From positions 119,722,001 through 119,786,000 of the forward strand of contig OZ024741.1 of assembly GCA_964016885.1 (NCBI GenBank): 64,000 bases of DNA, read 5' to 3'. Shown here piece after piece: positions 1 to 54,130 of this stretch. Below the pieces are notes generated by a model that saw nothing but the letters and a program-made list of their open reading frames with translations, did not search any database and was not told the DNA's origin. The translations under genes and the position numbers were made by a program. Source of the DNA: Eledone cirrhosa (Eukaryota). The stretch's first letter is position 1; each line of letters begins with the position of its first letter.

Positions 1-234
1 ACAGTACAAAATATAAATAGAATTCATAATAGAAACTTAAATTTAAACCCTAACCAATCTAACCAAAATAGCAATAATAATATTTCTAACAACAATATTC
101 AGAATAACAGTACCGTTCTGAACAACAATAACTCCAGTAAATGTAACTGTAGAATCAAATCAAACTGCCCTTTACAAAATAATTGCTTAGACAAAAACAT
201 AGTTTATAAATGCACAGTTAAAACTAGAGACAAA

Positions 235-570
235 ATGTTTATCTATGTTGGTGCCACTTCAACAAAATTCAAAGAACGTTGGAATAACCATAATCATACA
301 TTTAGGAGATCTGATAAAAAATATTCTACTTCACTTTCACATCTTATTTGGAATTTAAAAGACAACAATATAGACTATTCAATATCTTGGAGAACGATTT
401 CGAAAGCACCTGCATACCGAAATACTACTTTATCAAAATTCTGTAAATTGTGTATCGAAGACATTTTTTATATAATTAACTGTCAAAACTCTATTAATCT
501 CAGAACAGAATTATTTTCTTCCTGCAAACATCGCCAAAATTCCACGTTCAGAACTATTTTTAATTTATAA
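235..570 (+). pseudogene. GIY-YIG endonuclease C-terminus of Penelope-like ORF
   Basis: YVGATSTKFKERWNNH, SLSHLIW, CKLC...ELFSSCKH. Confidence 0.8.
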
Positions 571-1674
571 TATTCCTATACACCTTCAAAATTATTCTAC
601 CTTTTTAAAAATTTAAATGTAAATTTTTTAATATTTTTAATATTTTTAATATTTTTTTAATATTTTTAATATTTCAAACATTTTTTAATATCTCTAATAT
701 TTATAATATTTTTAATATATATATTTAATATTTTAATTTCCGACATTATTTTAATTCTGACATTATTTTTAATTCCGACATTATTTTTCTAAGGGCACCC
801 CTATAAATATATTTTTAGATGTAGATTGATAATCTTTAAATGACATTCTGAAAATTTATCCTCTTTTACGATAGATCTTCGAAAAACACATTACATTTTT
901 CCTCTCTCTTTTTGTTATTCAAACATTCACACATCTTTCGACTAAAATAATGGATCTCACATAAAATAGTATATAATTTTCTCTATATATTTTGGAGTAA
1001 ATCATTCATCTAATTTAATGGTTAACAAACAAAGAATTTGAGTTATCTTTCCTTTCTCAATCGTGCAAACATAAACATAGTATGTTTGATAATCTGTATA
1101 GCTTCGCTAAATTAACAATATTCTGAAAACATTTTCAATGTTGAACAAAATTTTTGAATCCACAAATTGTTCTACTCTCACAATTTGAACCACCTATTTT
1201 TAAGTAAAATACAAATTCAACTTCCTTCGTAACTCATATTTGATATATAAACAACTAATATATACGCAATTTATTAATATATATATATATATTTATATAC
1301 ATATAACCTATCGTAATGTAATAAGATAAAAATACAACCATAATTCTTCATTTAATCTAATTGATTATATATACAATATTATAACTCATAATATAGGTAA
1401 ATAAATCTTTTCCCCCAAATTAACGTAAATGCTAGCTCTTCTTCCTTTCTCTTCTTTCCTATGCATACAATAACTTATCATAGTTATTTAAATTTTCCAT
1501 AGCGTCTAAAATAACGTTTTTTTCAGCCCTTTTACCTAAACCTCATTTGCATACTCATCTTAATAATTTGAAATATCTAACTTTTATTCTCTTTTCCCTT
1601 CATTATCCAAGGATAACTTGAACCGTTAAGGTATATTCTCCTTGGTTATGTCAACATTTATAAAACACACTTCG

Positions 1675-1735
1675 TATTTTATCTGATGATAGCGTACCAA
1701 CATTTTGGTACCCTTGAAATATATATAATAGAATA
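1675..1735 (+). ncRNA. Type I hammerhead ribozyme in Penelope pLTR
   Basis: tattttat-CTGATGA-t-agcgtaccaa/ttggtaccct-t-GAAA-tatata-TA-atagaata; stems I and II pair, stem III is palindromic. Confidence 0.8.
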
Positions 1736-1844
1736 AATATGGTTTTATAAATATAGTTTCCATTTATTTAATATCATTGTATATTATACTCCAGAAAAAA
1801 CATTTATATTTGTTGAATTACCAACAAATTGAATATCCCTTTTG

Positions 1845-2612
<768 letters not shown>

Positions 2613-3164
2613 AATCAAGGGAGTGTAAACAGAAAATATCTTTAAAAATAATCATAAATAATTAAATTCCAAAACATTCACTGTACTTACTATATGTACC
2701 TTTACCGCGGTTTCAGATCCCAAATAAATAGACAATCCAAGTGGATTTACATTGAGAAAGAGATCATCGTCAGAAGGCTTTTCTCTCTCGGAGAATATAA
2801 AATTCCCAAGTTCAAATTACAAACTAGTGCCATACCAAACTGCCTTAGAATGAATGAATCAGTCATGGTTAGGAACGCGTGCAAAGGCGAAAGCACGTTG
2901 GACAGGTCAATCTAATGCTACTAAAAATAGCGGCTATACGAATGACCGAAGGTCTCTCTACCATTGGGAAGAATAATAATAAAAGTATGTGTCTTATATA
3001 TAATTAATGCATACAGGGATACAAGTATAGTCCGTATGCCAGAGTGGTTCAATAGCAAGTTAATAAATTAACAAGCCAGAACATATAAAATCAAGCGAGT
3101 GTAAACAGAAAATATCTTAAAAAATAATAATAAATAATTAAATTCCAAAATATTCACTGTACTT
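2613..3164 (-). mobile_element. Small non-coding HHR element with terminal direct repeats (retrozyme-like or solo pLTR)
   Basis: Repeats at 2613-2688 and 3089-3164 (period ~476); HHR inside; TA tracts on both sides. Confidence 0.7.
2699..2777 (-). ncRNA. Type I hammerhead ribozyme
   Basis: Minus strand: cctt-CTGACGA-t-gatct...ggatc-t-GAAA-CCGCGG-TA-aagg. Confidence 0.8.
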
Positions 3165-3256
3165 TTGGAATTAATATATATATAGACGGCTATTTCTGGA
3201 CTAAATTAGAATTTTTAGCCTGGCATATATAGCCTGGTATATGTATGTATATATAT

Positions 3257-13354: not shown

Positions 13355-13365
13355 CATACAGTTCC

Positions 13366-14318
13366 TAACAATATAAAATACGAATTTTCTTGCCACCCAC
13401 CCTGTAGTACTTATCAGCGAAGGCGCTGACTGGTTAGGGTGTTGAATTGACGATCATAAACTCCTATGTTTGATTCCCTGTATAACATTTTGTCTGTATG
13501 CAAAACATTTTATTTCCCGTTGCTTCAGTCCAACCAGCAGGAAAAAATCATTTATAAAATCATTTACAAAGGGCCAGCTATGTCACACTGTCACACCGAG
13601 TCTTCATGACAACTACCATCACATTGTACGTGTTTCTGGTATGCTCAGTCACTTATATGTTAATTTCACAATCTGGCTGTTGTGTTGATCAAATAAGTGG
13701 AAGACTCGTCGTCAGAATTGACGGTGATCCAATAACAACAATATATTTTAGGTATTGTGTTTCATCCCCATCGTTTCCGACGACTAGCGCTCCAGTCGTT
13801 TGAACAACGGAGCAGCGTACTTGTGAAATGAACGTGAAAGTGGCTGAGCATCCTACAGACATGTACGTCCATAACGTAGTTCTTATGGAGATTGTACGTG
13901 ATACAATGTGTGACATAGTTGGCCGTTTGAATAACAAGTATAATTCATTTCCCTAGTTGAGTTGACTGGAGCAACGCGAAATAAAGTGTTTTGCTCAAGG
14001 ATACAATGTACGACCTTACAACCGTGAACCGAACACCCTAACTACTAAGTCATGCGCTTTAGGTATTAATGTTTGTCCTTTAGTCAAGGAAAGGCAGCAA
14101 ATTGGCAGAGTCGTTAGAACGTCGGATAGAATGATTTGCGGTATTCGTTGTCTCTCTGCTCTCTGCTTTATTCGATGTCAATAAAAAACAAAAAAAACAG
14201 TACCCGCCAAGTACTGGGATTGCTTCTTTCTCTATATTCATTTCTCACTTCCTCTCTCTCATCCTCTATTCTCCACTGGAAGAAATCTGCTCTGTTTTCT
14301 GTTTCGACCTATAGAAGA
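13366..14318 (+). repeat. ~950-bp duplicated block, copy 1
   Basis: Near-identical to 32165-33099. Confidence 0.9.
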
Positions 14319-14884
14319 GATGTGCTCCGTTTGGTTTAAACAGGCCCAAGAAACGCCGTATGTTAATCTGTCACTCCTACGACACCACCAGGAGTTACGT
14401 GTCCATACATATATTAGTCAGAAACGGGTTAAACCATTCTGAGTATCATACAGTCGTTTTTTCAAAAGAATCAACATAATTTACATTTAAAGTTAACATA
14501 ATCATCAGTGTTAGCTGGAATCTTTATATGAGGTAACTGTTATTTTTATATTAAACAGTTGCAAACAGGAATGGAATTTCCCTTGTATTTTTTATGACAC
14601 GCCCAATGAAACGTATTTTTTTATGACACACCCAATAAAACTTATATAAATTATTATATAAGAAAGAATTGAGTTCCAAATAAAGGCGACACTTTGAAAT
14701 TTAAACTTACACGACTGTCCTTCCTTTTTTTTTGTTTTATTTTCCGTTTGTATTTGACGTCTTTAGATTGGAATTACGCGTTCTTTAACCGTTGGAAAGA
14801 ACGTTCACCATTAGCTAAAAGAGAGTCTGTCTAGCACCAGATGTATGTTTACTTAAGAAGTGAGTGTAATACTTTTCAATTGCA

Positions 14885-16298
14885 TATCTATCTATCTCAC
14901 CCATATTTTATAAAGCACACTAGACGGCATCATCTTTTCTAACCTCACCTTTCTCTTAAAGTATAATTTGAAGAAGTTGAGGAGGGCTTGGTCGGAGAGG
15001 AAAATTCTTTTTAGACGAGTCCACCAGATAGCTTCTGTCACCAAAACTACCAAGCAGAGGAAAACTTGCCGCGCCTCCTTGCTGTAAGACGGCTCAATTT
15101 TCACTATAGATTCGGCTGATTGCCAGATCAATCCTACACGTAATAGCAGTGGTTCAACACAACTATCGTGCCTGTAGAGTTTGTCTCAAACTGGAACTGC
15201 CTCACTGTAGCACGTATTTCCTTCAGAAGAGTCTGTTCAGACTGTTGTCGTCAATGCCTAGAGCTGCTCACAGGCCACCATCGCTCATACCTACCACAAA
15301 TTCTCTATAGAAAAACAAGTATTCTTGTCTGGTCACCTGTCGTGTTGTTCAGCTGGTAAAGTGACGGGAGTATTTGACAACACTCTAGATGCCAGTCGCC
15401 CACAAATGCAGCTCGGCCAAGAAGACAAGTTGCGGGTAAATATGTCGCAGGAAAGGCAGTTGGGCATCACTTTCATTGCCATCGTTGTTGCAGTACTTGA
15501 GGTAGTTCCACATGTGTATTAGTCGTAGCGCGTATTTGCGCATCAATAGCGATGCTATCCTGAGGCCACCATGGAGTGAATGGTGGTAGCAGATGGATTT
15601 TCAGACAAGCGGAACTTGTCCCTTCCACAAAATAGTGGAAGAGCATGTGTTTCAATCTGGTCAGATAATTCTGGGAGTATGGTATGACGGAAAAGCGGTA
15701 GTATACCACCGTAGCAAGGAAGGTGTTTGCCATCTCTGTCCAACATTTGGGGACAACTTGCTCTCTGTCCATTTCTATCCATTCTTCCAGAGATTGACTT
15801 CCTTTTTTGTGACTTTCTCCCAGTTCTTGTCTATCTGGTGGCTCGGTCCAAACCAGACTCCAAGCACTTTGATAGGCTATCATCCAGCGGCAGAGATTTC
15901 CGCAGGATGGCATGGTCCTGTCTCTCCACGTACCAAATTTAAAACCTTCTGATTCGTCCTGGTTATTCTTCCAGTATGGTGTCCACTGCTTCTATATGTA
16001 AAGTGTCCGACACCATGACCGTAACGCCATCTGCATACGCAGACACGGCTTTTCTGTGGCCAAGTTCTAGCGGAATTCCTCTCAAGGTTTCCATTCTCAA
16101 CAGCAGAAGCTCCAAAGCCAACACACAGGAGAGAGGGGACATCTCTGATGGTCCGAGCGTTCGATATGGAAATGTTCTGATAAAAAAACCTTTCAATTTG
16201 ACTATCGAACTGGTGTAAAACATGGCGATCCAACTTCTGAAAATGTGGCCGAAAGCAGCTGCTCTTAAGACAGCCTCCTGGTAGCGATGGCCTACACT
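14885..16298 (-). pseudogene. Decayed, 5'-truncated Tx1-type LINE ORF2
   Basis: HRYQEAVLRAAAFG, VSAYADGVTV and LFKRKVRLEK remnants homologous to 56768-60187. Confidence 0.85.
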
Positions 16299-16299
16299 G

Positions 16300-16345
<46 letters not shown>

Positions 16346-16352
<7 letters not shown>

Positions 16353-16900
16353 AGTTAATATGCCCATGGGTACTAAGTACCCCTGGAAATACATAGGTTG
16401 TCTATGATTCAGGGTGGTTCAATGGTATTAATTTGACATACCAGAACTATAATATTAAGATAAGCAGAACAAGTAAAATTCAACCAATTTTTCAAAATAA
16501 ATTAAAAAATATAATTTAAATATTTACCTATCAAGTTTGCCCTTACTGATCAGTTTCGCTTTGTAAAACATTAGAAATCCATTGGATTTCCAATGGAAAA
16601 TCAAAGTTCATCAGAGAAGCATTTTCCTTTCCTAGGACTAAAGTCCCAGGAACGATAAAATATATCGCCATCCGCCAGCTAGCACAGATCTAAATGAGGT
16701 CGAAAAGTGACCCGTACGTGAACCAGTCCGAAATAAGAGCGGGAAAAAACATAGACGTGCTGTCTATCCTACTACTAAAAATAGCAGCTAAATAGAACAA
16801 CAGATTTGTTCTCTACATAACGGAGAATATTAAAAGAAGTTAATATGCCCATGCGTACTAAGTACCCCTGGAAATACATAGGTTGTCTATGATTCAGGGT
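16346..16900 (-). mobile_element. Small non-coding HHR element with 70-bp terminal redundancy, inserted in (TA)n
   Basis: 16346-16415 matches 16831-16900 (1 mismatch, period 485); (TA)n on both sides. Confidence 0.8.
16538..16621 (-). ncRNA. Type I hammerhead ribozyme
   Basis: Minus strand: tgcttct-CTGATGA-a-ctttg...ccattgg aaat ccaatgg...caaag-c-GAAA-CTGATCAG-TA-agggca. Confidence 0.85.
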
Positions 16901-16940
<40 letters not shown>

Positions 16941-17129
16941 ACGGACGCACATGATAACTTAATTTGAAAAACCATGAAATCATGCTAACGAATGATTTCC
17001 ATACAAAAATAAATTAAAATCTAAGGATAGAAGCAAATATATATAGAATCTAATAAAAAAAAAGTTTACTCCTGTATTTTTATTTTTATTTTTGGAGAAA
17101 ATTCCTTTTCTTTCGACATACTAAAATAA

Positions 17130-22186: not shown

Positions 22187-23417
22187 ATTTCAATCGGACC
22201 CAGTATTGAACTGGCAATTTATTCATCAACTACGACAGGATGAAAAGCAAAGTTAACCACGACGCGGTTTAGATTCAGAGCGCAGAGTGCAGGAACAAAT
22301 ACTGCAAAACATTCTATCCGACGTTCTAACAACTCTGCCATTTTGCTATCAATCTAGCATTGCAGATATACAAACATTTGAAATTTTGTTCCGCCATCAT
22401 AACCCTTGAGTATAACAATTTTGACAAAGTCGCACGTCCGATTGATTATCAAACGTTATAGAAATTACGAGCTAACAAAAACAAATAACTAACCAGATGA
22501 GTGATTAGGATAGAAAAAGTGAAAATAATGAAATAATACATTAAAAAGATAAATAAATAAATACATCATAGCGTCTAATTCACAGAAATTTGGTTGAATA
22601 AAGAAATTTAGGGTTTAATAAAATATATCTGAAAGTACATATGGCAAGTTTGAAAGACAAATGGAAACATTGATTCCTTGGTCCGAGCTGACGAGTTCCA
22701 CTTCACTCGGTAAGCGAATGAGGTCAGGGATCTTGTCGATTCGGATCAATAAAGAATTAATATAATTGGTTGACAAAGAGGATATCATTAGTATAATTAT
22801 TTGGTCTTTGCATTAGGAGAGTGGGTGTCAATAATTAATACATATGGGAACCCTATATTAAAACACTAGTACACACACACGTATATATATGTGTATATAT
22901 ATATTAGAAAAGGGAAGTGAGGTTCTATACAAAACAGTAGATATAGAGAAAAGATAAAGTTGGAAATAGCACGGGAGATATATTTAAGGGTCTGTTTTTC
23001 TGTTTTGATTCGTCAAAGTGACATTATTGAAAAGATAGTGTTATGAAAAAAGATAATGTTATTAAAAAAAAAGAGAGGTACAATTCTTTTTTAAACATTT
23101 TTTTATGAAGTATATAAAGTATATGAGAAATTTTCGTATATACTTTATATAATCCCCCCCCCCCCAAAAGAATTGTCCCTCTCTTCTTTTTAATAACATT
23201 ATCTTTTTCGGGTTATAGCTACTGTCGCTCAGAGAGTGGAATTGGCTCAGTGCACAGTCTTTGCTCACTTTAAAAAATATCTACACGCACAGGCATTGCA
23301 CGATAAAATTAATTAATAATTATTAATAATGGTATATTGTGCAATGGCCATACTCGATAACGAGGGGTAGCCATCATCATCATGTATGTATGTATATATA
23401 TATATATATATATATAT

Positions 23418-26400
23418 AAGCAAAAGGGATATTCAATTTGTTGGTAATTCAACAAATATAAATGTTTATATAGCGTCTAAAAATAAAGTTTTTTTCAGCC
23501 CTATACCTCAACCACATTTGCATACTCATCTTAATAATTTGAAATATCTGACTTTTCTTCTCTTTTCCTTCACTATCCATGAAAAACTTGAACCGTTAAG
23601 TTATTCTTTCCTGGTATGTCAATATTTATAAAACAAACTTTGTATTTTATCTGATGAGAGCGTACCAAAGTTTTGGTACCCTTGAAATATATATAACAGA
23701 ATAAATATGGTTTTATAAATATAGTTTCCATTTATTTAATATCATTGAATATTATACTCCAGAAAACTTGTCGAGTGCTTTGAATCAGTTATAAACATTT
23801 ATAATTGTTGAATTACCAACAAATTGAATATCCCTTTCGCTTATAAATAGCTCCTTTAATGTTTGAACACTTTAAACTATAACTGATTGCAAAAATAATG
23901 GAATTCTTTAGGATTTCTTCGTCTCTAAAAGATGTACCCTTACCTAAAAATAAGGAATATCTAAAACAACTCATTAAAAAATCCGACTCCTTTATACGAA
24001 GACTTAGATGGCATGCTTTCCATTTTGATGAAAAATAGGAAGACAAAATAAATAAATCCAGTTACAACTTTGATCTTATCTTTAAATCTAAGAGAATCCA
24101 CCTAGCAACAAATTACTAGCCGAATTTGAAAATGAAGTAATCTCTATTATACAAAACATTAAATTTAAAAGAAACCAATTTGTCGGCCAGGAGTACCTTA
24201 AAGGCCTCAATAATAAAATAGACAATCTAGAAAAAACAAAGAAGATCCTGGTAAAATCTGACAAAACAAATAATTTATATGGTATGGAAAAGGACGAATA
24301 TAATAACCTTATACTGAAAGAACTCAGGAAAAACTACAAAATGACATCAAATGAAGATCTTTCAACGTTAAATAGAGAAGCTTCGGAAATTATTTATAAA
24401 TTAGGCATTCAAAATAGGACCGAACCCTTTATACCTAGAAAACCAAAGATTAACTTGAAGGATCACAAAAGAAATTTTGAAATTGAACTACCAGTCAGAC
24501 TCATTGCACCACCTAAATCTGACTTAGGCATAATTAGCTAGATAGAAATATACCACTACTTAAAGAAAAATCACACCTTAAACTATGGAACGGTACTAAT
24601 GAAGTTATAGATTGGTTTAATAACAAAATTAAAACATAAGAAAAAATTCATTCAAATGGATATTGCAAATTACTACTCCTCTATTACCCCTAGCTTACTT
24701 AATAAGGCACTTATCTACGCTTCTAAACACACTGACCTATCTAGTGAAGAAATGAATATAATTCTAACAGTACGTAAAACCCTAATAGAATTTAATAATC
24801 ATCTCTGGACAAGAGCCGACAGAAAAAACAATTTTGATATCACTATGTGATCATCTGACTCGGCGCAATTATTTATCAATAATGTACTGCATAGAAAAAT
24901 GCCAGAGATGACCGGAGGTTTATATCATGACGATATGTTGCTTTTAATTGAAAACCATAGCAATAGTGAAATTAATAGGAAAATGAAATCCATAATACAA
25001 TTTTTCAACAACTAATTTAGACCTTAATTTAGAAATCGAGAATAATTACAAAAATCATTAACTTCTTAGATGTAACCTTAGCTCAGGTCTTTACTATCCA
25101 TTCCATAAAATTAACGAAAATCTAAATTACGTAAGTTTCAATTATAATAATCCTAGAAATATAAAAAACACTATTGTCAATAGCATCCAGCAACGGATTT
25201 CACGCATCTCTGCTAATAAAAATATTTTTGATGATAAGGCAGAATATTACAATGAGGCTTTACATAGAGCAGGATACTCGAATAAAATTAAATACATAGA
25301 TAACAATAACATGACACACCATCCTAGAATTCATTATAATAATAATAAACAATTTAACTTAAATACTAAACCAAACAAAAAAACTAGAACTAGAAATATT
25401 ATTTGGTACTCTCCCCCATTCTCATTAAGCGTTAAAACACCTTTAGCAAAACTATTTTTTAAAGCACTAGATAAGTATTTTCCTAAAGCCCACAGATAAG
25501 ATACCACTCTATTTTTAACAGACACACTATAAAACTATCCTACTCTACTACTATGAACATAGCACAAAATATAAATAGAATTAATAATAGAAACTTAAAT
25601 TTAAACCCTAACCAAACAAATCAAGATAGCAATAATAATATTTCTAACAACAATATTCATAATAACAGTACCGTTCCTAATAACAACAACCCCAGAAAAT
25701 GTAACTGTAGAATTAAATCAAACTGCCCTTTACAAAATAATTGCTTAGACAAAAATGTAATTTATAAATGCACAGTTAAAACTAGAGACAAAATATTTAA
25801 CTATATTGTTGCCACTTCTACAAAATTCAAAGAACGCTGGTACAGCCATAAACATACATTTAATAGGTCCGATAAAAAATCTTCCACTTCACTTTCACAT
25901 TTAATTTGGAATTTAAAAGACAACAATATAGACTATTCAGTATCCTGGGGAACGATTTCGAAAGCACCTGCATACCGAAATACGACTAAAATAATATATA
26001 ATTGAAACTCTCATCCTTGAAAAATTAATCTCACACAAAATAATATATAATTTTCGCTATATATTTTCCGAGTAAATCATTCATCAATTTTAACGGTTAG
26101 CAAACAAGATTGGAGTTATCTTTTCCTTTTCCTTTTCAATCGAGCAAACATAAACATTATAATATGTATAATAAACTATATAACTTCGCTAAATTAACAA
26201 TATTCTGAAAACATTTTCAATGTTATGTGATTCTGCAAATTGTTCTCCTCTTACAACTTGAACTACGTGTTTTTTTATGTAAAATGCAAAATCAACATCC
26301 TTCGTAACTCATATGAGAAATGTAAACAACTAATAATTGTGATTTATTTCTATTTCTATAAAATCACCAATAATACTTATACATGCATAATTATTAATCT

Positions 26401-26902
26401 ATATAGATATTTATATACTTACAACCTGTTGTACTGTAATAAGATAAAATGTACGTACAACCATAATTCTTCATATAATCTAATTGATTATATATACAAT
26501 ATTATAACTCATAATATAGCTAAATAATTTTTAAAATTCTGGAATCATATTCCACCATTCCTACAAATTGTTAATTCTTTTTAAATTAACGTAAATACAA
26601 GCTCTTCTTTCTTTCTTTTTCTTCTTCCTATACATATATCTTAATTATTTAAATCTACATAGCGTCTAAAAATAAGGTTTTTTTCAGCCCTATACCTCAA
26701 CCTCATTTGCATACGCATCTTAATAATTTGAAATATCTGACTTTTCTTCTCTTTTCCTTCATTATCCAGGAAAAACTTGAACCGTTAAGTTATTCTTTCC
26801 TGGTATGTCAATATTTATAAAACAAACTTTGTATTTTATCTGATGAGGGCGTACCAAAGTTTTGGTTATAATAGAATAAATATGGTTTTATAAATATAGT
26901 TT
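23418..26902 (+). mobile_element. Near full-length decayed Penelope-like element, family A
   Basis: pLTRs at 23470-23842 and 26660-26902; RT remnants (LKDHK, PVRLI, DIANYYSSI, YHDDML); GIY-YIG at 25553-26005; starts in (TA)n with an inverted tail. Confidence 0.9.
23643..23703 (+). ncRNA. Type I hammerhead ribozyme in 5' pLTR
   Basis: CTGATGA-g-agcgtaccaa/ttggtaccct-t-GAAA-tatata-TA; the 3' pLTR copy at 26832 has lost GAAA. Confidence 0.75.
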
Positions 26903-27299
26903 CGTCCGACCCTCTACCAATACTGCCAATCCACCGCCCTAATATTCACATACCCTCATTTTCACATACATGTTCATTCAGAGAAGAAAGTTAATATCTC
27001 TGTCCATCCTTCTCTACTAATGGCTTGGTTGTGACTGGAGGGGAGATGAGAAGAAGAAGAAGGAGGGAGAGGAAGCAGGGGATGGCTGTTGTGGCAGTAG
27101 ACTGCTGTGTGAGACCCTTTGAATAGTGGATACAAGGTTTGGCTCGGATTGGTTTGAAAGGCCGGGTGACCTTAGAGTTGATCGTTGGGGTGTTAACTCA
27201 TTCCATCCCTAGCAGATATTTCAGCGGGGGAGGGGTTGATTGTTTCTAAAAACATCTATCTTGGTATTTTTTCTAAGAAGAAATCATCAATATTGACCT

Positions 27300-31674: not shown

Positions 31675-32204
31675 ACAGGGTAGGTGTAAAGAAACTTCCC
31701 ATTGAAAATTACTTATAACTGTTGGACTACTGTGACCACTTAGGACAACATAAATGATCTCATATTCATGCAAGATGAAGGCTCCTCCTCATTTTGCACG
31801 CACTGAGTCGCTTGATGTCCACTTTCCAGGAGGTTGGCTGGTTGTTGAGGTCCACATGAATGGTCAGCAAGAAGCCTTGACTTAACACCATGTGATGTTT
31901 TTCCTGTGGGGGTGGGCGAAGGAAGAAGTTTATAGCTCAAAACCAAAAACTCTGACTCAATTGGAGGAATACATTCGTAATGTACTGACCAACATACTGC
32001 CTGAGTTTCTGATGAAGTCAGTCGAGGATATACCCAGGCGATAACAAACACTGGTGGACAACGTTGATGCCTATATAGAATGTTAACATTGTACTGTACT
32101 TCAACCATTATACTGTTCAAAATAAGACGTTTTATGAAAATCGGCCAATAATTAATAAAGTTCATAACAATATAAAATACGAATTTTCTTGCCACCCACC
32201 CTGT
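31675..32204 (+). mobile_element. Internally deleted Tc1/mariner-type element with TIRs
   Basis: tacagggtaggtgtaaagaaa...tttcttgccacccaccctgta; degenerate QDGAPPH and WP.RSPDL.PCD.F-like coding remnants. Confidence 0.65.
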
Positions 32205-33099
32205 AGTACTTATCAGCGAAGGCGCTGACTGGTTAGGGTGTTGAATTGACGATCATAAACTCCTATGTTTGATTCCCTGTATAACATTTTGTCTTTATGC
32301 AAAATATTTTATTTCCCGTTGCTTCAGTCCAACCAGCAGGAAAAAATCATTTATAAAATCATTTACAAAGGGCCAGCTATGTCACACTGTCACGCCGAGT
32401 CTTCATGACAACTACCATCACATTGTACGTGTTTCTGGTATGCTCAGCCACTTATATGTTAATTTCACAATCTGGCTGTTGTGTTGATCAAATAACTGGA
32501 AGACTCGTCGTCAGACTTGACGGTGATCCAATAACAACAATATATTTTAGGTATTGTGTTTCATCCCCATCGTTTCCGACGACTAGCGCTCCAGTCGTTT
32601 GAACAACGGAGCAGCGTACTTGTGAAATGAACGTGAAAGTGGCTGAGCATCCTACAGACATGTACGTCCATAACGTAGTTCTTATGGAGATTGTACGTGA
32701 TACAATGTGTGACATAGTTGGCCGTTTGAATAACAAGTATAATTCATTTCCCTAGTTGAGTTGACTGGAGCAACGCGAAATAAAGTGCTCAAGGACACAA
32801 TGTACGACCTTACAACCGTGAACCGAACACCCTAACTACTAAGTCATGCGCTTTAGTTATTAATGTTTGTCCTTTAGTCAAGGAGAGGCAGCAAATTGGC
32901 AGTGTCGTTAGAACGTCGGATAGAATGCTTTGCGGTATTCGTTGCCTTTCTGCTCTCTGTTTTATTCGATGTCAATAAAAAATAGTATCAGTCAAGTACT
33001 GGGGGTTTTTCTTCCTCTATATCCATTTCTCACTTCCTCTCTTTCATCCTCAATCCTTCACTGGAAGAAATCTGCTCTGTATCGACCTATAGAAGAGAT
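32165..33099 (+). repeat. ~950-bp duplicated block, copy 2
   Basis: Near-identical to 13366-14318. Confidence 0.9.
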
Positions 33100-33867: not shown

Positions 33868-35085
33868 AATAATGATTTCATTTATTAGCCACGAAGGCCA
33901 AAATGTAGGGGACAATACAAAGACAGTGACAGTGGTGGTTTACAATAAGCTTGACTAAAAGTGCACAATAGCAAAACCAATTTAACAATGAGAAAATACA
34001 AAATAAACTATGTATAAACATAAAAGAAAAATTCCCCCAAAGCGGGGTGAACCACCCAGGGGCAACTCAGGTACCCCACCAATCCTGAACCACCCGACGC
34101 TTCTATGGCACCCGGGGAGGGCAACCATCTCCCCCTCAAATTAACCATCCTACAAGCACATGGTCAGAGTAGGTCCACTCACACGGGCTATTCTCGCCAC
34201 ATTCATCCACCTTTTAGCAAATGTACTGGGGGGCAACACTTCTCTCTCCACCCTTACCTTCCTTTCCAAGTGAAACTTGAAAAAGATGAGGGATTGGCCG
34301 AAGAGAAAAGTGTCTGTCTTCAGTCCTTTCAACCTTTTCCATCATACAACCTCTTTCGCAACTGCCACCAGACAGAAGAATATTGCCTGCCCTTCCTGGC
34401 CAAAAGAAAGTGCCTGGTCTATCTTCACTATGGACTCGGCTGATAGCTGGATCCGTTCTACACGCGACAACAGCTGTTCGACATAACTCAGTAATGCACG
34501 GACATTGGACGAGTGCGTGCAGAACGGTTTCGTAGCTCTGCGCGCATCGGGCAGGTCCGTCTGACAGCACTTCTGTGTCTGTAGAGTTTATCTTGAACCG
34601 GCAGTGCTCCCCGATAGCACTGCCAAGCGAGCGATTTCTGGAAGTTTTCTATCGGCTCGAAACTTCCCCAGAACACTGGACAGTTTGACTTGGTCGACGC
34701 CCAGAGCCTCTCCGAGTGCGTCATCGCACTTGCCCACCACTAATCCTCTATAGAATTCGAGAGTGGAAGTTCCACTGACTATTGCCCGTCTGGTGGAGGG
34801 CAGTGAGTGCCTGGCAACATTCCAGATGCCAGTCACCCAATCTCGGTCTCTTCTTGACCCAGGACTGCAGCTCAGTCAAAGAGAGGAGCTGTGGAAAGGC
34901 CCGTCTTACAAACGGCGACCACACATGTTCACCGTTTAGGCAGAATATCTGGAGATACCGCAGCCTCAGCACCATTAGCCACGACATGCCCAGCCCTCCG
35001 CGTAGAGGGTGCTGGCAGCAGATGAACTGCCTCACCAATGGAACCTGTCCCCTCCACAAGAATTTGAAGAGGAGCCGTTCCAACT
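33868..35085 (-). pseudogene. 5'-truncated Tx1-type LINE (ORF2 3' part and 3' UTR)
   Basis: ERLLFKFLWRG, FQKSLAWQCYRGALPV; 3' terminus aataatgatttcatttattagccac resembles that of the young copies. Confidence 0.9.
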
Positions 35086-38800: not shown

Positions 38801-40144
38801 ATTGAATAGTGAACAAAAACATGTGTACAACTTCGTTTGTAACAGTTTAGAGAGGAACACATCTGCATTGATTTTCATTGATGCTCCAGGTGGAACAGGA
38901 AAGACAATTAAATCCTTTCAAAAGTCAGGGGAAACGGTGACGTGGCTATTGCTGTGGCATCATCTGACATTGCCGCAACACTGATACCTGGTGGAAGAAC
39001 GGCACATTCTAGGTTCAAAATACCAATAGTAGTGAAAGAAAATGGTCTGTGCAACATTGATAAAAGCTCAAAGATGGCAAACCGCTTCCAGCATACAAGG
39101 CTGATTGTTTGGGACGAGTGTCCTATGATCCGGAGGGAAAGCTTCGAAACTGTTTACCTCATCCTGACCTCATACGACAACAATGAGGCATTCGGTGGGA
39201 TTTTGACAATCTGCTGTGGTGATTTCCGTCATTTCTTCCGGTAGCGAAAAGGGGAAATGATGCGGATGTGGAAAACGCCTGCATTAAAAAAATACTACTT
39301 ATAGCGAAGCTTCAAAACATTTCAATTGAAGACAAACATGCGATTGAGTGAGGGAGTAGGAGACTATTCACAGTTCCTATTGGATATTGGAGAAGATAAG
39401 AGCAAAAAAACTGAAAATGAGGGAAGTATTTTGCCAAAAGAAAAAATAGTTCTCCAAGCAACAACTATGGAAGAATGCATTGATTTCATCTACACCTCAT
39501 TAGACAATCCAGCTGAGGTGTTTTCGAACAATTGTATCTTAGTACCTCTCAATGAAATGATGAGAAGCATCAATTCTACCTGTATCAGACTCTTCCCTGG
39601 AACCATAAAAGAGTACCGATCCTATAATTCTGTGAGTGATGATGCCAATGCCACCCATTTCCCGACTGAATTCCTTGATTCAGTTGAACTATCAGGACTG
39701 CCACCACATAACCTGGAATTGAAAAAAAGATCGCCAATAATTCTTATGAGAAACTTGAATTCTCCACGGCTTTGTAATGGAACGCGCATGATCGTGGAAG
39801 AACTGCACGACAATCTCATAGTAGCAAGAATCAACACTGCTGCTTTCAGATATGAGATCGTTATGATACCTAGAATAAGAATTAATCTATCCGAAGGTGA
39901 GGATATCCCTTTGCAGCGAAGCCAATTCCCAGTTCAATCGTGCTTCGCTATAACTATTCATAAAACACAAGGACAAACTATGGAAAACGTATTGGTTTAT
40001 CTGGAACGACCTGTATTCCAACACGGTCAACTGTATGTAGCCCTTAGCCGCGGAAAACGAAAAGAAAATGTCAGAGTGTTTCTGAAGGATACCCAGTCAA
40101 CTAAGAATGTTGTCATCAAAAGCATTCTTTTGAACAAACTGTAA
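35840..40144 (+). pseudogene. Helitron Rep/PIF1-helicase with stops and frameshifts
   Basis: CCMNGKV, FITMTCNPNWPEI, VEYQK*GLPHVHCL, HMIHGP, DAPGGTGKT, WDECPM, GDFR, LCNGTR, HGQLYVALSR. Confidence 0.93.
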
Positions 40145-43773: not shown

Positions 43774-44537
43774 TCTGCAATGCTGTGGTTGAAACAGTGG
43801 ATCACTTAGTCTCTGGATGTAAAGTTTTAGCACCAGTAGAATACAAATCTAGACATGACAGAGTTGGCCAATAACTTCACGGGGTAATATGTCGGCATTA
43901 CAAAATCAAAGCTGAAGACAATTGACACAATCATCACCCTGAGGCTATAACTGAAGGAGAAAAAGTAATCATTCTCTGGGACTTTCCTCTACATACTGAC
44001 AGGACCATAAAAGCAAATAGACCTGACATCATTGTAAAAGATCAACATAATAAGGTCTGTTTATTGATAGATATGAGCATTCCATGTGATCACAATATCG
44101 CGGCAAAAGAATTTGACAAGCTACGAAAATATAAAGATCTGCTTATTGAAATTGAGAAAATGTGGCACCTTAAGGCCGTTACAATACCAGTGATTGTGGG
44201 AGGACTGGGAATGATCAAGAAAGGAACAGAACAATATTTGCGAATGATTCCTGATTTACCCTCTCTGCAAGAGGTGCAAAAAATTGTTTTGACTGGTACT
44301 GCACACGTATTGAGAATAGCACTATCTCTGTGTATTTACATATGCATATGCACATGTGTATATATGTATACTGTTTTTTTTCTTCTTTTTTTAAAATTAT
44401 AATCAATGTGCTGTATTAACTGGCTTACCAATGCACACTGTGAATTTATTTGCCCTAGGTGTCAGGAAGACACTCGGCATATATCTCAGAAACAATAATG
44501 AAAGAAAATAAAAAAAAATGATAATAAAAAAAAAAAA
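43774..44537 (+). mobile_element. 5'-truncated R4/Dong-type element (RLE domain and 3' UTR)
   Basis: ETVDHLVSGC, RHD, RPDIIVKD, LIDMSIP, KYKDL; AAT tracts on both sides. Confidence 0.85.
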
Positions 44538-44552
44538 AATAATAATAATAAT

Positions 44553-46509
44553 AAGGAAATCTACCATCACCTCCACACAAACAACTTGTTACCGGACGAA
44601 CAGAAAGGATGCCGAAAGAAGTCCCGTGGTACAAAGGACCAGTTACTTATTGATAAGATGGTAATGAGGAATTGCAAGAGGAGACACACTGGTCTTGCCA
44701 TGGGATGGATAGACTACAAAAAGGCATTTGACATGGTGCCTCATTCTTGGATCACCAAAGGCCTAGAGATCTTCAAGGTGGCAGATAACATCAGAAAGTT
44801 GTTGGGCAAAAGTATGAAGTCCTGGAAAACAGAGTTAACATCAGCTGGAGAATCCTTGGGAGGCGTGAAGATCAAGAGAGGTATCTTCTAGGGAGATAGT
44901 CTGTCCCCTCTGTTGTTTGTCCTTGCCCTGATGCCCCTGACCATTATACTGCGAAAAGTGAGAGCAGGATACAAGTTGGGAAAGCCAAAGCTTACCATCA
45001 ATCACCTCCTCTTCATGGACGATCTTAAGCTCTTCGGGAAGAGTGAGAAGGAGTTGGATGTGCTTGTTGACACTGTCCGTATTTTCAGCAATGATATATG
45101 TATGCAATTTGGTATTAGTAAGTGTGGAGTCCTTGTTATGAAGAGGAGTAAATTGAGCAGAAGCAACGGAATCCAGGTAACAACAGGTGAGATGATAAAG
45201 GAAATTGACACTGAAGAAGGATACAAGTATTTGGGTGTTCTGGAGGCTGATGACATCAAGAACAAAAAAATGTAGGAATTAATAAGATCTGAATACATTC
45301 GGAGAATAAGGAGCGTATTAAAGTCACATCTGAACAGTAGGAATGCCATAAGTGCAGTAAATTCCCGAGCTGTGTCTATTATTAGGTACAGTGCAGGAAT
45401 TCTGAGATGGAATGTTGCTGAACAAAAAGAAATGGATAGGAAGACTAGGAAGCTATTGACTATCTACAACATGTTCTACAAGAGTAGTGATGTCGATAGA
45501 CTCTACTTAAGGAGATCTGAAGGTGGAAGAGGTCTTATCAGCATAGAGGACTGTGTTCAGATGGAGAAAAACAACCTACACAAATACGTGACTGATAGTA
45601 AGGAGCCAATGCTCAGAATTGTACTGAAGGAGAGGACAATAGACCAGGGGGATGTCCAAGGAGGAAATAACAACAAGGAGAAAGAGAAGCCTTCATGAAA
45701 AATCCCTTCATAGTACCTTCTTTGAGAAAACTGAATCCAGAGATCCACAGACATGGAACTGGTTGAAAAGAGGAGACCTTAAAAACGCTACAGAAGGAAT
45801 GTTAATGGCTGCGCAAGAGCAGGCCCTCAAAAAGAAGTGGCTGAAACACCATATTTACAAGGAGGAGGCTAGCCCACTGTGCAGGATCTGTGGCTCACAT
45901 TGTATCCGAGTGTAAACACCTAGCCCAGACTCACTGTAAAAGCTGGAGACATGATGTGATGGGCAGGGTGATCCACTGGCACCTATGCAAAGTAAACAAT
46001 TTGACACATTCTGAGAACTGGTATGAGCATAAGCCAGAGTCGGTGATAGAAAACGATCAGGTGAAGGTGCTGTGGGATTTTAGGATACAGACGGACAAGA
46101 AACTGGAACACAATAGACCTGACCTGGTGGTTTTGAACAAGGAAAAAAGATCGTGCCTGATTGTGGATGTGGCCTGCCCATTCGACACGAGAGTGCAAGA
46201 GAAGGAGAGGGAGAAAATTAACCGATACCAGGACTTAAAGTGGGAGGTAAAAAGGATTTGGAACTGCCATGAAGTCAAAGTGGTCCCGATTGTCATAGGC
46301 GCACTAGGTACTATCTCAAAAATTTTCCAGGGATGGTTAAAGAAAATTGGCCCCGCCACGCTTTTTGGAACGCTTCAAAAGGCATGCTTGCTGGGAACAG
46401 CAAGAACCCTCCGATACGTCCTGAATATCTGAGGCTGCAGGCAGTGGCTTGATATTCATTTCAACAAACTTTCCAGTTAACTAACATCAATGACTGAGAC
46501 TCAAAGAAC
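44553..46509 (+). mobile_element. 5'-truncated R4/Dong-type element (RT + RLE, with stops)
   Basis: [36 protein letters not shown]; ends in (AAT)19. Confidence 0.9.
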
Positions 46510-46569
<60 letters not shown>

Positions 46570-46769: not shown

Positions 46770-49700
46770 ACCCCGTGACCAAGAAATACCGGGATGGCGG
46801 CCGGCGGGGAATAGCCATGTCTCTAGGGGAGAACGACCCCTCTAGTCTTGGTTGACACTCGTTCTAGAAGTGGTAACACGAAAAGATTACCCCTTGGCGG
46901 ATAAGGATAAAACGCGACAAAATAAAGTAGATGTCTAATGATGAAATCTCATACCGGATCGGCCGTCACCCGGGTAAAAAAGGGCCGCGTCCCTCAGAGA
47001 GGAACCAGACTGGGGTCGAAAAATCAGCTAATGGTTCAAACCTTCCCATCACTTCGGAGCTGGAGACCTCCCATAACCGGAATACTCCTACTGTTGGCCC
47101 TCCATGCTCACCACCAAGAAATCCAAAGAAAAAGAGAGAAAAATGGTCAAGGGAAGATAATAAAGAAGTCCTTGAGGCTTTCTACACTGCCATGTACTAC
47201 CCATCAAATACATCGAATACAGAGCAAACATATATCAACTGGAAAAAGAAACATCCCGAAAACAGAGGCTATATTGACAGTAACAAACTAGCCAATATAC
47301 GAAGAAATATTGTAAGAAAAAAGTTACTAACTGATATAGAAATTGATCAGATCAAGCTAGTAGCACAAAGTCAGCGAAGGGAAAATGAAGCATGTGTCAG
47401 TGAAAACGAGGTAAACTGTAACACTTCGAATCCCAGAGTTGGGGCGGAATCACTGGCAACAGAACAAATTAAAGAAAGGAGCGAAAAAGTGGAGGGAGTG
47501 CATGCTCAGGATGAAACTCCAAATGAAAATAATGAGATCGTAAATGATAAAGAAATGAATGAGAATGAACTTGCCAACTTGAAGGATGAAATTATGATCG
47601 AATGGATGAAAATGAAAGAATCTGACATGGGGGAACGAGACACCCTCCCTAAGATCCAGAACTCCAAACAGAACCAAAAGATAATACACAAGACAAACAT
47701 AATTCTCAAAAACATTATCATCACAAACAAACTAAGCATTACTGACTTAAATCATCTCTATTATGCATCGGCTAAAGTCACCACTCACTTATGTGGAGTG
47801 AAGATGAAAAAACAAAGGAATTCCCACAAGAAATCTACTTGGCAAGATAACATCAATCGCCAAATAAACCTTCTCCGATCTGACATAGAAATTTTAACAA
47901 ACTATAAAGTAGGTGAACATGTTAAACAAACTAAACTTAGAAAATTGAAAAAAAAGTACAGTATAAGATCAACATGTGACATAGACATGCTGATAGAAAC
48001 AATCAAGCAAAAAGTGTCGGCCAAAGCTGCTCGTATAAGGCGCTTTGAAAAACGATCTAGATTCTATAAGGACAATAATATGTTCAAAAACAACCAAAGA
48101 AACTTCTACAGAAAAATTGGTAAGTCAACAATAACTGCTAAATCAATACCACCCAAGGAGGAAGTGCAAGAATTCTGGGAAAAGATCTGGGCCGAAGAAA
48201 AAGTTCATAACATACATGCCCCATGGATAGACAGACAAATGAAAGAAACAGCTCACCTTGAAGAACAAACATGGGAAAATATAACAGTTGAACAGCTGCG
48301 CTTGGCTCTAAGAAAAACCAGCAAATGGAAATCCCCAGGAAAAGACAAAATACAAAACTTTTGGATAAATGCCTTCACAGAGTCTCATGAGCTGTTAGCC
48401 CAACTTTACAATGAAATAGTTAAGGAGCCAGAAAAGATACCATCATGGCTAGTTAACGGCATTACATTCCTGCTACCGAAGAATGATGAGACAAACAATC
48501 CCAAAAATTACAGACCGATAACCTGCTTGACCACAATGTATAAAATTTTAACATCAGTCCTAACTGAATACACATATGACCACCTGATAACAAATGACCT
48601 ATTTCCCATTGAGCAGAAAGGGTGTAAACGAGGCTCATATGGCTGTAAGGATCAGCTTCTGGTTAACAAAATGATACTGGAAGATTGTCATAATAGACAC
48701 AAAAATCTATCGATTGCTTGGATAGATTATAAAAAAGCATTTGATAGTTTGCCACACAGTTGGATTGAAAAATGTTTAGAGATTTTCAAAATATCCCCCG
48801 TTATCAGGAGGTTTTTGTCATTCAGTATGAGGACATGGAGAACGACACTCCTTTTGAATAGTGAAACAAAATCACTGGAAGCTGGAGAAGTTAACATTAA
48901 TTGTGGAATTTTTCAGGGTGACTCTTTATCACCGCTTTTATTCTGCATCGCACTTATACCATTAAGTAAAATGCTCAATGAAACAAAACATGGATATAGA
49001 GTCTATGACAAAACCATTAATCACCTGTTCTACATGGATGACCTGAAACTATTTGCAAAAAATGATGAACAATTGCAAGGGCTATTATCCACTGTGAAGC
49101 AGTTCAGTGATGACATTAAAATGGAGTTTGGACTGGATAAATGCGCCAAAGCAACGTTCACCAGAGGAAAGCTGCTGAAGAGTTCAGACATTAATCTTGA
49201 TCGGGGGAACGTGATAAGAGAGCTTGATCAAGAACAAACTTACAAATATCTAGGTGTTTGTGAAGGAGACGGAATCAAGCACTCGACAATGAGGGAAAGG
49301 ATAAGGAAGGAATGTTACCGCAGAGTCAGAGCAATCTTAAGAACGGAATTGAATGCAAGGAATAGGATCGATGCCATAAACACGCTTGCCATACCAGTAG
49401 TAACCTACAGTTACAATGTCATCAACTGGTCAAGCACAGAGATCCGTAGGCTCGATACAAAAATCCGAAAATTCTTAACCATGCACAGAATGCATCACCC
49501 TAAGGCAGACATAGATAGAATATATCTCCCTAGGAAAGAAGGAGGACGTGGGTTAATCCAGTTAGACATTGCGTTGAAAACTGCAACAATTGGATTATCC
49601 ACATATCTAAGGGAATCACATGATTGGATGATCAAACTCGTTTTGAAATACGAAAGCACCAAAAGATCATATTCCATTACAAAAGATGCACAAAGATACA

Positions 49701-50721
49701 GTAATGGACTACAAATTTCAGAAGTCCCATTTACTGCTGAAATGGAAAACACAGAAAAAGCAAAGCAGGTAAAAGTAACTGCAAAGAAAGAACTGCTACA
49801 GAAACTGGCTAAGAAATGGCAAGAAAAGCCTCTGTATGGAAAATACCCAGAGCGAGCTAACAATCCTGATGTTGACAAAACTTTAACCCATCAGTGGTTG
49901 GCATCCTCTGGACTGAAATCGGAGACTGAAGGACTGATTATATCCGCACAAGATCAGTGTCTGCCAACAAAAAATTACCAAGCCAACATAATAAAAAATG
50001 GGTGCAGCCCATTATGCCGTGTATGCAAAAAACAACCAGAGACCATTGACCATATAATTTCAATGTGCAGTCCTATAGCTCCAACCGAATACCTAAACAG
50101 GCATGACAGAGCTGCACAATACATACATTGGATAATGTGCAAGCATTTTGACCTGCCCCATCAAAAGAATTGGTGGGAGCATCAACCACCTCCCATACTT
50201 GAAAAAGATCACATCTCAATCTTGTGGAACTTTAGCATCCAAACAGACCGAAAAATAGATGCAAATAGACCTGATATAATATTGAAGGACTTTCAAAGGA
50301 GGGTATGCCTGCTAATTGATATGTCTGTTCCAATAGACAAGAATGTATCTATAAAAACATTTGAAAAATTGAGCAAGTATAAGGACCTGGAGATAGAAAT
50401 TGGAAAAATGTGGAAATTGAGAACTAAAACAATACCAGTGGTTGTAGGCGCTCTGGGAATGATACCTAAGGGGTCTAACGACTACTTATCGCAAATCCCA
50501 GGAAACCCGCGTATAGGAGAAATACAAAAGATAGTACTAATGGGAACTGCCCATATACTAAGGAAGATCCTGTCAATATAAGTACATCACAAGTCTAAAC
50601 ACTAAGGATGCATGTGTGAATATGTGTGTTCTTTCTTGAACATGGCGGACCTTGTTGTCTCTTGAGGTCACTGGTTGTGACTTGGTGATAACTCGTATAA
50701 ACATAAAGCAAGATAAATGCA
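46770..50721 (+). mobile_element. Apparently full-length R4/Dong-type RLE retrotransposon
   Basis: GC-rich 5' UTR, single intact ORF, 3' UTR ending in (AAT)9. Confidence 0.9.
46931..50581 (+). CDS. 1216-aa RT + CCHC finger + restriction-like endonuclease (R4/Dong clade)
   Basis: GIFQGDSLSPLLF, FYMDDLKLF, CRVCKKQPETIDHIISMC, RHD, RPDIILKD...IDMSVP...KYKDL. Confidence 0.93.
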   Translation: MSNDEISYRIGRHPGKKGPRPSERNQTGVEKSANGSNLPITSELETSHNRNTPTVGPPCSPPRNPKKKREKWSREDNKEVLEAFYTAMYYPSNTSNTEQTYINWKKKHPENRGYIDSNKLANIRRNIVRKKLLTDIEIDQIKLVAQSQRRENEACVSENEVNCNTSNPRVGAESLATEQIKERSEKVEGVHAQDETPNENNEIVNDKEMNENELANLKDEIMIEWMKMKESDMGERDTLPKIQNSKQNQKIIHKTNIILKNIIITNKLSITDLNHLYYASAKVTTHLCGVKMKKQRNSHKKSTWQDNINRQINLLRSDIEILTNYKVGEHVKQTKLRKLKKKYSIRSTCDIDMLIETIKQKVSAKAARIRRFEKRSRFYKDNNMFKNNQRNFYRKIGKSTITAKSIPPKEEVQEFWEKIWAEEKVHNIHAPWIDRQMKETAHLEEQTWENITVEQLRLALRKTSKWKSPGKDKIQNFWINAFTESHELLAQLYNEIVKEPEKIPSWLVNGITFLLPKNDETNNPKNYRPITCLTTMYKILTSVLTEYTYDHLITNDLFPIEQKGCKRGSYGCKDQLLVNKMILEDCHNRHKNLSIAWIDYKKAFDSLPHSWIEKCLEIFKISPVIRRFLSFSMRTWRTTLLLNSETKSLEAGEVNINCGIFQGDSLSPLLFCIALIPLSKMLNETKHGYRVYDKTINHLFYMDDLKLFAKNDEQLQGLLSTVKQFSDDIKMEFGLDKCAKATFTRGKLLKSSDINLDRGNVIRELDQEQTYKYLGVCEGDGIKHSTMRERIRKECYRRVRAILRTELNARNRIDAINTLAIPVVTYSYNVINWSSTEIRRLDTKIRKFLTMHRMHHPKADIDRIYLPRKEGGRGLIQLDIALKTATIGLSTYLRESHDWMIKLVLKYESTKRSYSITKDAQRYSNGLQISEVPFTAEMENTEKAKQVKVTAKKELLQKLAKKWQEKPLYGKYPERANNPDVDKTLTHQWLASSGLKSETEGLIISAQDQCLPTKNYQANIIKNGCSPLCRVCKKQPETIDHIISMCSPIAPTEYLNRHDRAAQYIHWIMCKHFDLPHQKNWWEHQPPPILEKDHISILWNFSIQTDRKIDANRPDIILKDFQRRVCLLIDMSVPIDKNVSIKTFEKLSKYKDLEIEIGKMWKLRTKTIPVVVGALGMIPKGSNDYLSQIPGNPRIGEIQKIVLMGTAHILRKILSI

Positions 50722-50999
50722 AATAATAATAATAATAATAATAATAATGATTTCTTTATTAACCACAAGGGTTTACATAAAGTAGACATTAAGGACAGTG
50801 CAGGACAATGCAGGACGGTACAAATGGGCATTTCTGCGTGTAAAAAACAAAAACAGAGGATGTAACAAAAAATAACAATGAAAAATTCCCCAATAGGGGG
50901 CAGACTTCGGAGGGACATTTGTGGAGAAAGCCCAATAAAAAGCCACAATGACCCTGACCACCAAGGCAAGTGCCCTCTCCCAGTTTTCCACCTTTAATT

Positions 51000-53900: not shown

Positions 53901-54095
53901 TCCAGGACGGCTGGGAGATGCGTACACATCGTAGCCGCCGAAGATCGGTGCGAAGGCCCGTGCTTCGGAGATTCTGGTCTCGCTGATGGCCACTACATCT
54001 ATGTTTAGTGACCTGAGGTCGTTGAGCAGGTGACCCTGCTTCCATGACGACCCCAAGCCACGCGCATTTATGCTGCCTATTCTGAGTGAGGTCAT
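51000..54095 (-). pseudogene. ORF2 (APE + RT), frameshifted, zinc-finger region deleted
   Basis: 815-aa ORF nearly identical to the N-terminal part of the 1139-aa ORF. Confidence 0.9.
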
Positions 54096-54130
54096 GTTTA
54101 AAATAGAGTGGAAAAGATGGGACAGACCAC

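Follow-up and report, generated by a model that had tools for sequence, protein, structure and literature searches.

A multi-copy, non-coding repeat with a predicted hammerhead ribozyme inside a TA microsatellite: likely a non-autonomous, retrozyme-like family of Penelope type

Element A represents one copy of a repeat of 485 bases that is non-coding, multi-copy, equipped with a predicted hammerhead ribozyme and located inside a TA microsatellite. It was analysed within a 64,000-nt stretch of DNA (the window) together with element B, a diverged relative from the same window. The family of element A (family A) is likely a non-autonomous, retrozyme-like family of Penelope type. Mobilisation of the unit in trans by a Penelope-type reverse transcriptase (RT)-endonuclease at (TA)n is very probable. 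For the locus itself, we favour, at a probability of about 0.5, a TA-microsatellite insertion by a Penelope-like enzyme that likely copied an uncleaved, longer-than-unit transcript from an internal start.

Element A and its flanks

The preliminary description of this locus had reported a non-coding unit between two (TA)n tracts, the first 70 bp of which recur at its end with one mismatch. Layout, repeat and lack of coding capacity were all confirmed (Table 1). The direct repeat, 16346-16415 versus 16831-16900, comprises 70 nt with one mismatch at a spacing of 485 (blastn E 6e-30). When it is scored with the family majority letter at 16416, it extends by two bases (72 nt, two mismatches). In the circularised unit, the longest ATG ORF encodes 42 aa (sense strand), and tblastn with eight Penelope-type proteins against the unit yielded no match at E<1. 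An ORF for RT plus GIY-YIG is absent at the loci of both elements. A LINE RT fragment starts at the left TA tract of element A. Because this fragment does not resume on the right side, the empty site cannot be reconstructed, and any target-site duplication would be hidden by the (TA)n present on both sides. No tRNA gene was found in the 64-kb window.

Table 1. Features of elements A and B and of the Penelope-like copies in the window
Feature	Coordinates	Strand	Basis or remark
(TA)n tract at RNA-sense 3' end of element A	16300..16347	.	likely target site
Element A unit, 485 nt, non-coding	16346..16830	-	repeat spacing, minus-strand-only structure, ORF check
Terminal redundancy of element A, 70-72 nt (5'-truncated upstream copy of the unit's 3' end)	16831..16902	-	
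(TA)n tract at RNA-sense 5' end of element A	16903..16936	.	
102-nt stretch separating the TA-joined first and second 3' ends in family A	16346..16447	-	loose ends 16448-16452, best rotation 16447
Type I hammerhead motif of element A (predicted)	16538..16621	-	descriptor, covariation
Predicted long AU-rich hairpin between hammerhead and second 3' end of element A	16469..16531	-	fold
Predicted 8-bp hairpin directly 5' of the element A hammerhead	16631..16650	-	fold
Most conserved A/B word, 14 nt exact, small hairpin, candidate cis-element	16771..16790	-	A/B comparison
Element B unit, 476 nt	2608..3083	-	57% identity to A when circularly permuted
Terminal redundancy of element B, 81 nt, 94%	3084..3164	-	
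Short inverted copy at 5' end of element B, then short TA run	3163..3183	+	
Type I hammerhead motif of element B (predicted)	2698..2778	-	descriptor, covariation
Decayed coding Penelope-like element, Hydra-clade marks, TA end, inverted 5' copy, hammerhead-bearing pLTR	23393..26903	+	
Second copy of that Penelope-like family, 3' part, ending in (TA)n	1..1879	+	

The predicted hammerhead ribozyme

On the minus strand, element A comprises the hammerhead core CUGAUGA (16614-16608) and GAAA (16557-16554). Stem II has 50 nt with five pairs at its base, stem III is a 10-nt palindrome (16554-16545), and stem I consists of four pairs, or of six with one bulge. Cleavage is predicted after GUA, between 16544 and 16543. 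A type I hammerhead with palindromic stem III had been proposed for this strand, and both motif and palindrome are present. It had also been called intact, a term to be qualified for the copy in the window: Position 10.1-11.1 at the base of stem II is an A·C mismatch (16607). In the sequencing runs considered below, the canonical G-C at this position accounts for 6320 of 11063 depth in X1, 39 of 103 in X4, 25 of 33 in X5 and 9 of 32 reads in X7.

A hammerhead descriptor scan of the window gave two matches, element A and one at 2773; 20 of 20 locally shuffled windows gave none. Rfam at the gathering score returned 0 matches over the whole 64 kb, and at E up to 10 the region 16300-16950 yielded 24 weak matches, none of which is a hammerhead. 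Since Rfam has no hammerhead match, the ribozyme call stands on descriptor and covariation. Pattern scans found 0 matches in viral contigs. Three matches in metagenome contigs were dismissed as chance: Outside the pattern they are unlike the unit, and two of them are located within bacterial-looking ORFs.

Element A contains only 70 nt of the 276 nt needed for a second hammerhead, and element B 81 of 171. Neither locus contains an array of at least two units with a complete hammerhead in every unit. With one hammerhead, element A could therefore not itself form a circle by double cleavage.

Element B, a permuted relative

Element B was found through the second descriptor match of the window. 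Its flanks are TA-rich. The hammerhead has its core from 2773, a 52-nt stem II, U·U at 10.1-11.1 and an 8-nt palindromic stem III; cleavage is predicted at 2703/2702. Local alignment of A and B scores 122.5 versus a maximum of 49 in 300 shuffles. Over the whole unit, 57% identity requires a rotation of A to 16447 (global score 278 versus 102 unrotated), and this rotation point coincides with the second TA-joined end seen independently in reads. The ends of A and B are permuted, and therefore the sequence at the end of one family runs on uninterrupted inside the other. Of the whole unit, 16775-16827 is conserved best between the two elements.

RNAalifold on A and B retrieves the base of stem II, where four of five pairs are altered on both sides. 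In stem I, pairing is maintained with different pairs, and the two elements have unlike palindromes as stem III. This covariation, the best evidence available here although it comes from a small sample of two sequences, suggests selection on the ribozyme. Both A and B run across the predicted cleavage site, and neither end coincides with it. The distance from this site to the 3' end would be 96 nt for the second end of A, 95 nt for B and 198 nt for the window copy of A. A two-sequence profile built from A and B detected no third element in the window.

Family A in sequencing runs

The element A monomer was compared with four sequencing runs (X1, X4, X5 and X7) at 80% likeness; the runs X2, X3, X6 (share 0.04), X8 and X9 lie outside the family A counts. 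X1 is possibly the window's own source, X5 carries another organism label, and X7 consists of reduced-representation data, the read counts of which may be single loci. X1 contains 721 contig pieces of family A, 182 of them at 99% or above, 187 at 95-99%, 225 at 90-95% and 127 under 90%. Elsewhere, 30 contig pieces (X4), 21 contig pieces (X5) and 992 reads (X7) were found. All four runs contain the head-to-tail joint from 16830 to 16346. Diverged head-to-tail joints coincide in X1, X5 and X7; the joint from 16813 to 16350 or 16352 is represented by one contig in X5 and by 45 reads from two starts each in X7. A junction fixed in this way fits a unit of set length rather than random truncation of a long parent, and unit length is thus a family trait.

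Two RNA-sense 3' ends are joined to TA. The first is at 16346-16348, the second at 16452 (two contigs in X4) and 16448 (61 reads in X7). One of the two X4 contigs that end at 16452 appears to be the deepest contig listed for X4 (depth 46), as calculated by record arithmetic from 554 letters, 24 between, 56 matched and 13 loose. The intervening 102-nt segment would behave as an optional, though long, Penelope 'tail'. TA-joined 5' ends (RNA sense) are found at 16488 (one contig in X4), at 16819 (56 reads in X7) and, in element A, at 16415-16417. The preliminary description had suggested comparing the ends of further copies and looking for an ORF-bearing parent. In this comparison, the 5' ends proved variable and the 3' ends permuted, and the junctions listed include no ORF-bearing parent: The best 24 of 164 loose-end rows contain no junction to a parent with an RT or GIY-YIG ORF. 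A dimer or longer master of family A is not seen among the best 24 of 791 pieces. The longest junction-spanning piece listed (X5 record 17) covers 144 nt of the next unit, and a second ribozyme needs 276. The contigs of family A are short and so cannot display dimers.

Both repeats of element A have a minority letter in common, G at 16412 and 16897, where A accounts for 8489 of 9160 X1 depth. In X7, 316 reads match only 16775-16827 and continue into unlike sequence. They likely derive from a third related mini-family; a coding partner is possible. Three contigs jump from 16530/16531 to 16617/16618 with undetermined letters between, pointing to ribozyme loss or strong divergence. At 16533-16549, adjoining the cleavage site, X1 depth falls sharply. 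A pile-up of copies that stop at the cut was rejected as the cause: The fall is absent from X4, X5 and X7, and the stretch is highly variable.

RNA folding

The circular minimum free energy of the element A ribozyme strand is -131.5 (z -5.9), and none of 60 shuffles is as good. Background windows (14) gave z values between -2.8 and +1.2, and the antisense strand of element A reaches -97.0, which is about the shuffle mean. For element B, the circular fold has a z of -3.2 with none of 40 shuffles as good. In the modelled monomer ensemble of element A, the hammerhead helices are predicted to be minor (stem II 0.29, stem III 0.01). The stem III palindrome of A would be unstable as a hairpin (+1.5), but as dimers the palindromes of A and B are predicted to pair well (-13.6 and -14.1 kcal/mol). 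The palindromic nature of stem III and its conservation predict dimers.

In addition to the hammerhead, three structured parts are listed in Table 1. Element B has a predicted hairpin at the place equivalent to the long AU-rich hairpin of A. The 8-bp hairpin is preserved in a diverged subfamily via two double changes (16637/16644 and 16638/16643), which were read by hand from the loose ends behind 16636 in X1, X4 and X5. Structure conservation inside family A is mixed. Among the best 40 of 204 letter differences placed on the predicted fold, 9 keep a pair, 9 break one and 22 are unpaired or uncertain; two of the 9 pair-breaking differences are compensated by a change of the partner. None of the 38 varying positions listed falls within the 22 core and stem III positions, which is not significant, as about 1.7 would be expected.

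Penelope-like elements in the window

The two Penelope-like copies of the window contain RT plus GIY-YIG remnants with stops and frameshifts. Their family marks are DKT, CxCX5C and the RWH version of RWK, and hammerhead-like motifs are located at 23651, 1683 and 26841. Judged by these sequence features, the copies appear to match the TA-targeting Hydra clade (PMC8557442). DNA similarity between elements A and B and these Hydra-type copies was not detectable. In 10 comparisons of A and B with the Penelope pLTRs and 3' ends of the window, 6 to 87 of 100 shuffles equalled the score, and eight anchored tests gave p values of 0.18-0.59. A 12-mer common to the units and a window Penelope pLTR as well as look-alike 3' ends were discarded as not significant. 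The more complete copy could represent the type of enzyme able to mobilise A and B; it is not a proven partner.

Relation to known systems

Partial tandems are the normal form of Penelope-like insertions, and 5' inversion is a Penelope hallmark; in the Hydra clade, (TA)n is the insertion target of nearly all families (Craig et al., 2021, PMC8557442). In 2014, hammerheads in Penelope pLTRs, their dimeric action via a palindromic helix III and more-than-unit copying of circles yielding tandems were proposed (PMC4209133). In 2020, non-LTR retrozymes and their circles were described, and the circle idea was put forward again (Cervera and de la Pena, 2020, PMC7229834). According to a 2026 preprint, non-LTR retrozymes represent non-autonomous Penelope derivatives, and solo monomers are noted; the definition of an 'active' retrozyme given there asks for at least two tandem units, all of them carrying a complete hammerhead (Li, Clavereau and Pollet, 2026, bioRxiv 10.64898/2026.07.22.740005). 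Hence, both the circle idea and the link between retrozymes and Penelope are already published and not new. In vitro, a Penelope RT initiates at two internal sites of an uncleaved linear RNA and does not depend on hammerhead cleavage (Frangieh et al., 2024, PMC11167929). In this system, anole Poseidon, the RNA is cut at +26 and RT starts at +111 to +118, i.e. after 85-92 nt; uncleaved RNA is the dominant in vitro substrate (PMC11167929).

With animal non-LTR retrozymes (PMC7229834; 10.64898/2026.07.22.740005), A and B share a unit that is non-coding, low in GC and a few hundred bases long (51-972 bp according to the preprint), a type I hammerhead (here supported by motif and covariation), a predicted RNA with strong self-pairing and the presence of Penelope-like elements alongside. 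The U·U at the base of helix II in element B is also reported for one axolotl family. In contrast to the retrozyme arrays described there, which have at least two ribozyme units, A and B are dispersed 1.15-mers with one ribozyme between (TA)n. Their stem II of 50-52 nt and two alternative ends 102 nt apart are further differences.

Like Penelope-like elements (Hydra clade; non-autonomous Chlamys, e.g. MRC1; PMC8557442), A and B form partial tandems with 5' truncation, and they share an inverted 5' copy (in B), an optional 3' tail, (TA)n targeting and a hammerhead in the repeat (as in Hydra). They differ in lacking an ORF and in the tail of 102 nt compared with 30-40 nt; Chlamys, unlike A and B, is mostly devoid of hammerheads (PMC8557442). 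The anole (Anolis) Poseidon element PAc resembles A and B in having two ends or RT starts downstream of the hammerhead and an AT-rich target. The first start after the cut is at 85-92 nt in PAc versus 95-96 nt in A (second end) and B (PMC11167929). In contrast to A and B, PAc is coding and its start is in an AC-rich stem-loop lacking homology to the target, whereas both ends of family A are AU-rich and TA-like (PMC11167929).

Three short motifs were searched for in the supplement of PMC8557442: Two are absent and one has three occurrences, of which the two listed are unrelated. Among the papers listed by literature searches, no title or abstract opening mentions dispersed, TA-targeted one-ribozyme partial tandems with permuted ends; Repbase is outside this scope, and the supplements of the 2026 preprint may hold similar families.

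Proposed mechanism and alternatives

In the proposed mechanism, tandem master copies of the unit would be transcribed through. A Penelope-type RT-endonuclease, plausibly of the TA-targeting Hydra clade, may then bind the hairpin region 3' of the hammerhead and nick (TA)n. Reverse transcription would begin at either of two AU-rich positions, which lie 96 and 198 nt 3' of the cleavage site, cross one unit and halt at a variable distance into the next. The hammerhead, predicted to be active as a dimer, would cut multimer transcripts into monomers that may circularise; copies with one ribozyme such as element A would not circularise alone.

Both copies cross the cleavage site, and their template must have bridged it without a break and exceeded one unit in length; a tandem transcript left uncleaved, a circle and a template jump would each qualify. 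The second of these had been the core of the preliminary description, which asked whether the locus is the footprint of a circular RNA and suggested a TA-targeted retrozyme family mobilised by Penelope enzymes. A TA-targeted, non-coding, multi-copy hammerhead family and TA-targeting Penelope-like elements in the same genome were indeed found. Element A may be the footprint of a circle, but an internal start on linear RNA gives the same pattern (PMC11167929). A closed monomer circle as template, produced when dimeric hammerheads cut multimers and a host ligase closes the products, and copied by the RT for slightly more than one round, is a serious though less probable alternative. It accounts for ends of A and B that are internal to each other, as expected for a unit without fixed start, and for copies that cross the cleavage site, which excludes a cleaved linear monomer as template. 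Strong folding of a single strand only, a hammerhead that covaries across 57% identity, the regeneration of redundancy and minority letters common to both repeats of A, as from a single template, also agree with it. Retrozymes of coral, mussel and axolotl are expressed as circles, which RtcB closes in vitro (PMC7229834). However, all of these observations fit an uncleaved tandem transcript, too. Moreover, Penelope insertion in vitro is unaffected by hammerhead mutants (PMC11167929), only two discrete 3' ends were seen, and the A·C mismatch is predicted to weaken the ribozyme of element A. Overlaps of 72, 81 and 143 nt end before the second cleavage site (198, 95 and 198 nt), which, with n=3, decides nothing. 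The uncleaved linear transcript is slightly favoured over the circle because it alone has biochemical support (PMC11167929). With an internal start on linear RNA, neither partial tandems nor alternative ends call for a circle, and a start at two sites, as observed for the Poseidon protein, explains the optional genomic tail (PMC11167929). This in vitro precedent comes from one Poseidon-clade protein (PMC11167929). The spacing of 102 nt between the ends, larger than the usual tail of 30-40 nt, weakens the case for the linear transcript (PMC8557442). The missing DNA similarity to the Penelope copies of the window, the lack of a dimer among the pieces listed, the mixed structure conservation and the minor hammerhead helices of the monomer also count against the proposed mechanism. 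A linear template cannot lengthen the redundancy, and therefore dimers, circles or re-priming must exist somewhere. In the boldest reading, which is rather doubtful, A and B would belong to an old group of TA-targeted RNA circles that ride Hydra-clade Penelope enzymes. Two sites on the circle would serve as alternative openings for the genomic copies, whose closure leaves a short overlap, and the pair would be direct genomic evidence for more-than-once copying of a ribozyme-made circle as the source of Penelope partial tandems.

Two other explanations have less in their favour. In the first, a coding Penelope-like family would supply the unit as its pseudo-LTR or 3' end, and the locus would comprise two 5'-truncated copies. 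The layout is that of Penelope partial tandems, and the junction evidence stems from the best 24 of 164 loose-end rows and the best 24 of 791 pieces. In addition, the depth-46 contig of X4 extends 325 nt past 16636 in sequence too diverged to align. The 316 X7 reads that match 16775-16827 alone could also be taken in this sense, but this is the best-kept A/B stretch, so that they fit a third mini-family as well. Such a parent is improbable given that the junction position is constant across diverged subfamilies and a second organism label, that A and B are collinear round the entire unit with no room for an ORF, that only a fraction of 0.03 of the X1 matches continues into unlike sequence and that a coding remnant is absent. 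A satellite-like hammerhead repeat, spread by duplication or recombination of DNA in TA tracts and not via RNA, is still less probable. Amplification of pLTR-derived units in local tandems by unequal crossover has been proposed (10.64898/2026.07.22.740005), and neither an empty site nor a target duplication is definable at element A. However, the fixed 3' and variable 5' ends, the 5' inversion in B and the strand-specific structure argue for reverse transcription.

For the questions of how Penelope-like partial tandems are regenerated and which purpose the hammerhead serves (PMC8557442, PMC11167929), an ORF-free, multi-copy unit of 480 nt with two end sites at measured distances from the cut permits a test by counting: Overlap lengths would be capped at the cut if a singly cleaved linear template was used, and would extend beyond it in the case of a circle. 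The pair of A and B, with starts offset by 102 bases round the unit, would be a handy test of RNA-circle copying. The surprise is limited, since retrozymes as Penelope parasites have already been described.

Other elements in the window

The window consists of animal-like DNA rich in repeats and contains several LINE-type RTs. Named relatives of one RT of the window come from insects and a shrimp, with at most 62% identity. An open RT ORF of 1216 aa (46931-50581) is located between (AAT)n tracts at 46510-46568 and 50722-50748; decayed relatives of it occupy 43776-46429. This ORF presumably resembles R4/Dong-type microsatellite-targeting LINEs. In the region 51151-64000, a LINE with two ORFs and the domains endonuclease, RT and zf-RVT, which we take to be Tx1-like, is repeated in tandem; its copies are nearly identical (97.6% over 6.8 kb). 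Diverged fragments of this LINE are present at 14895-16295 and 34153-35083. A Pif1-type helicase fragment at 39305-40144 is possibly derived from a Helitron. An element of about 950 nt is found in two copies with 95% identity (13356-14321 and 32155-33099) and shows internal inverted similarity at 13500-13994.
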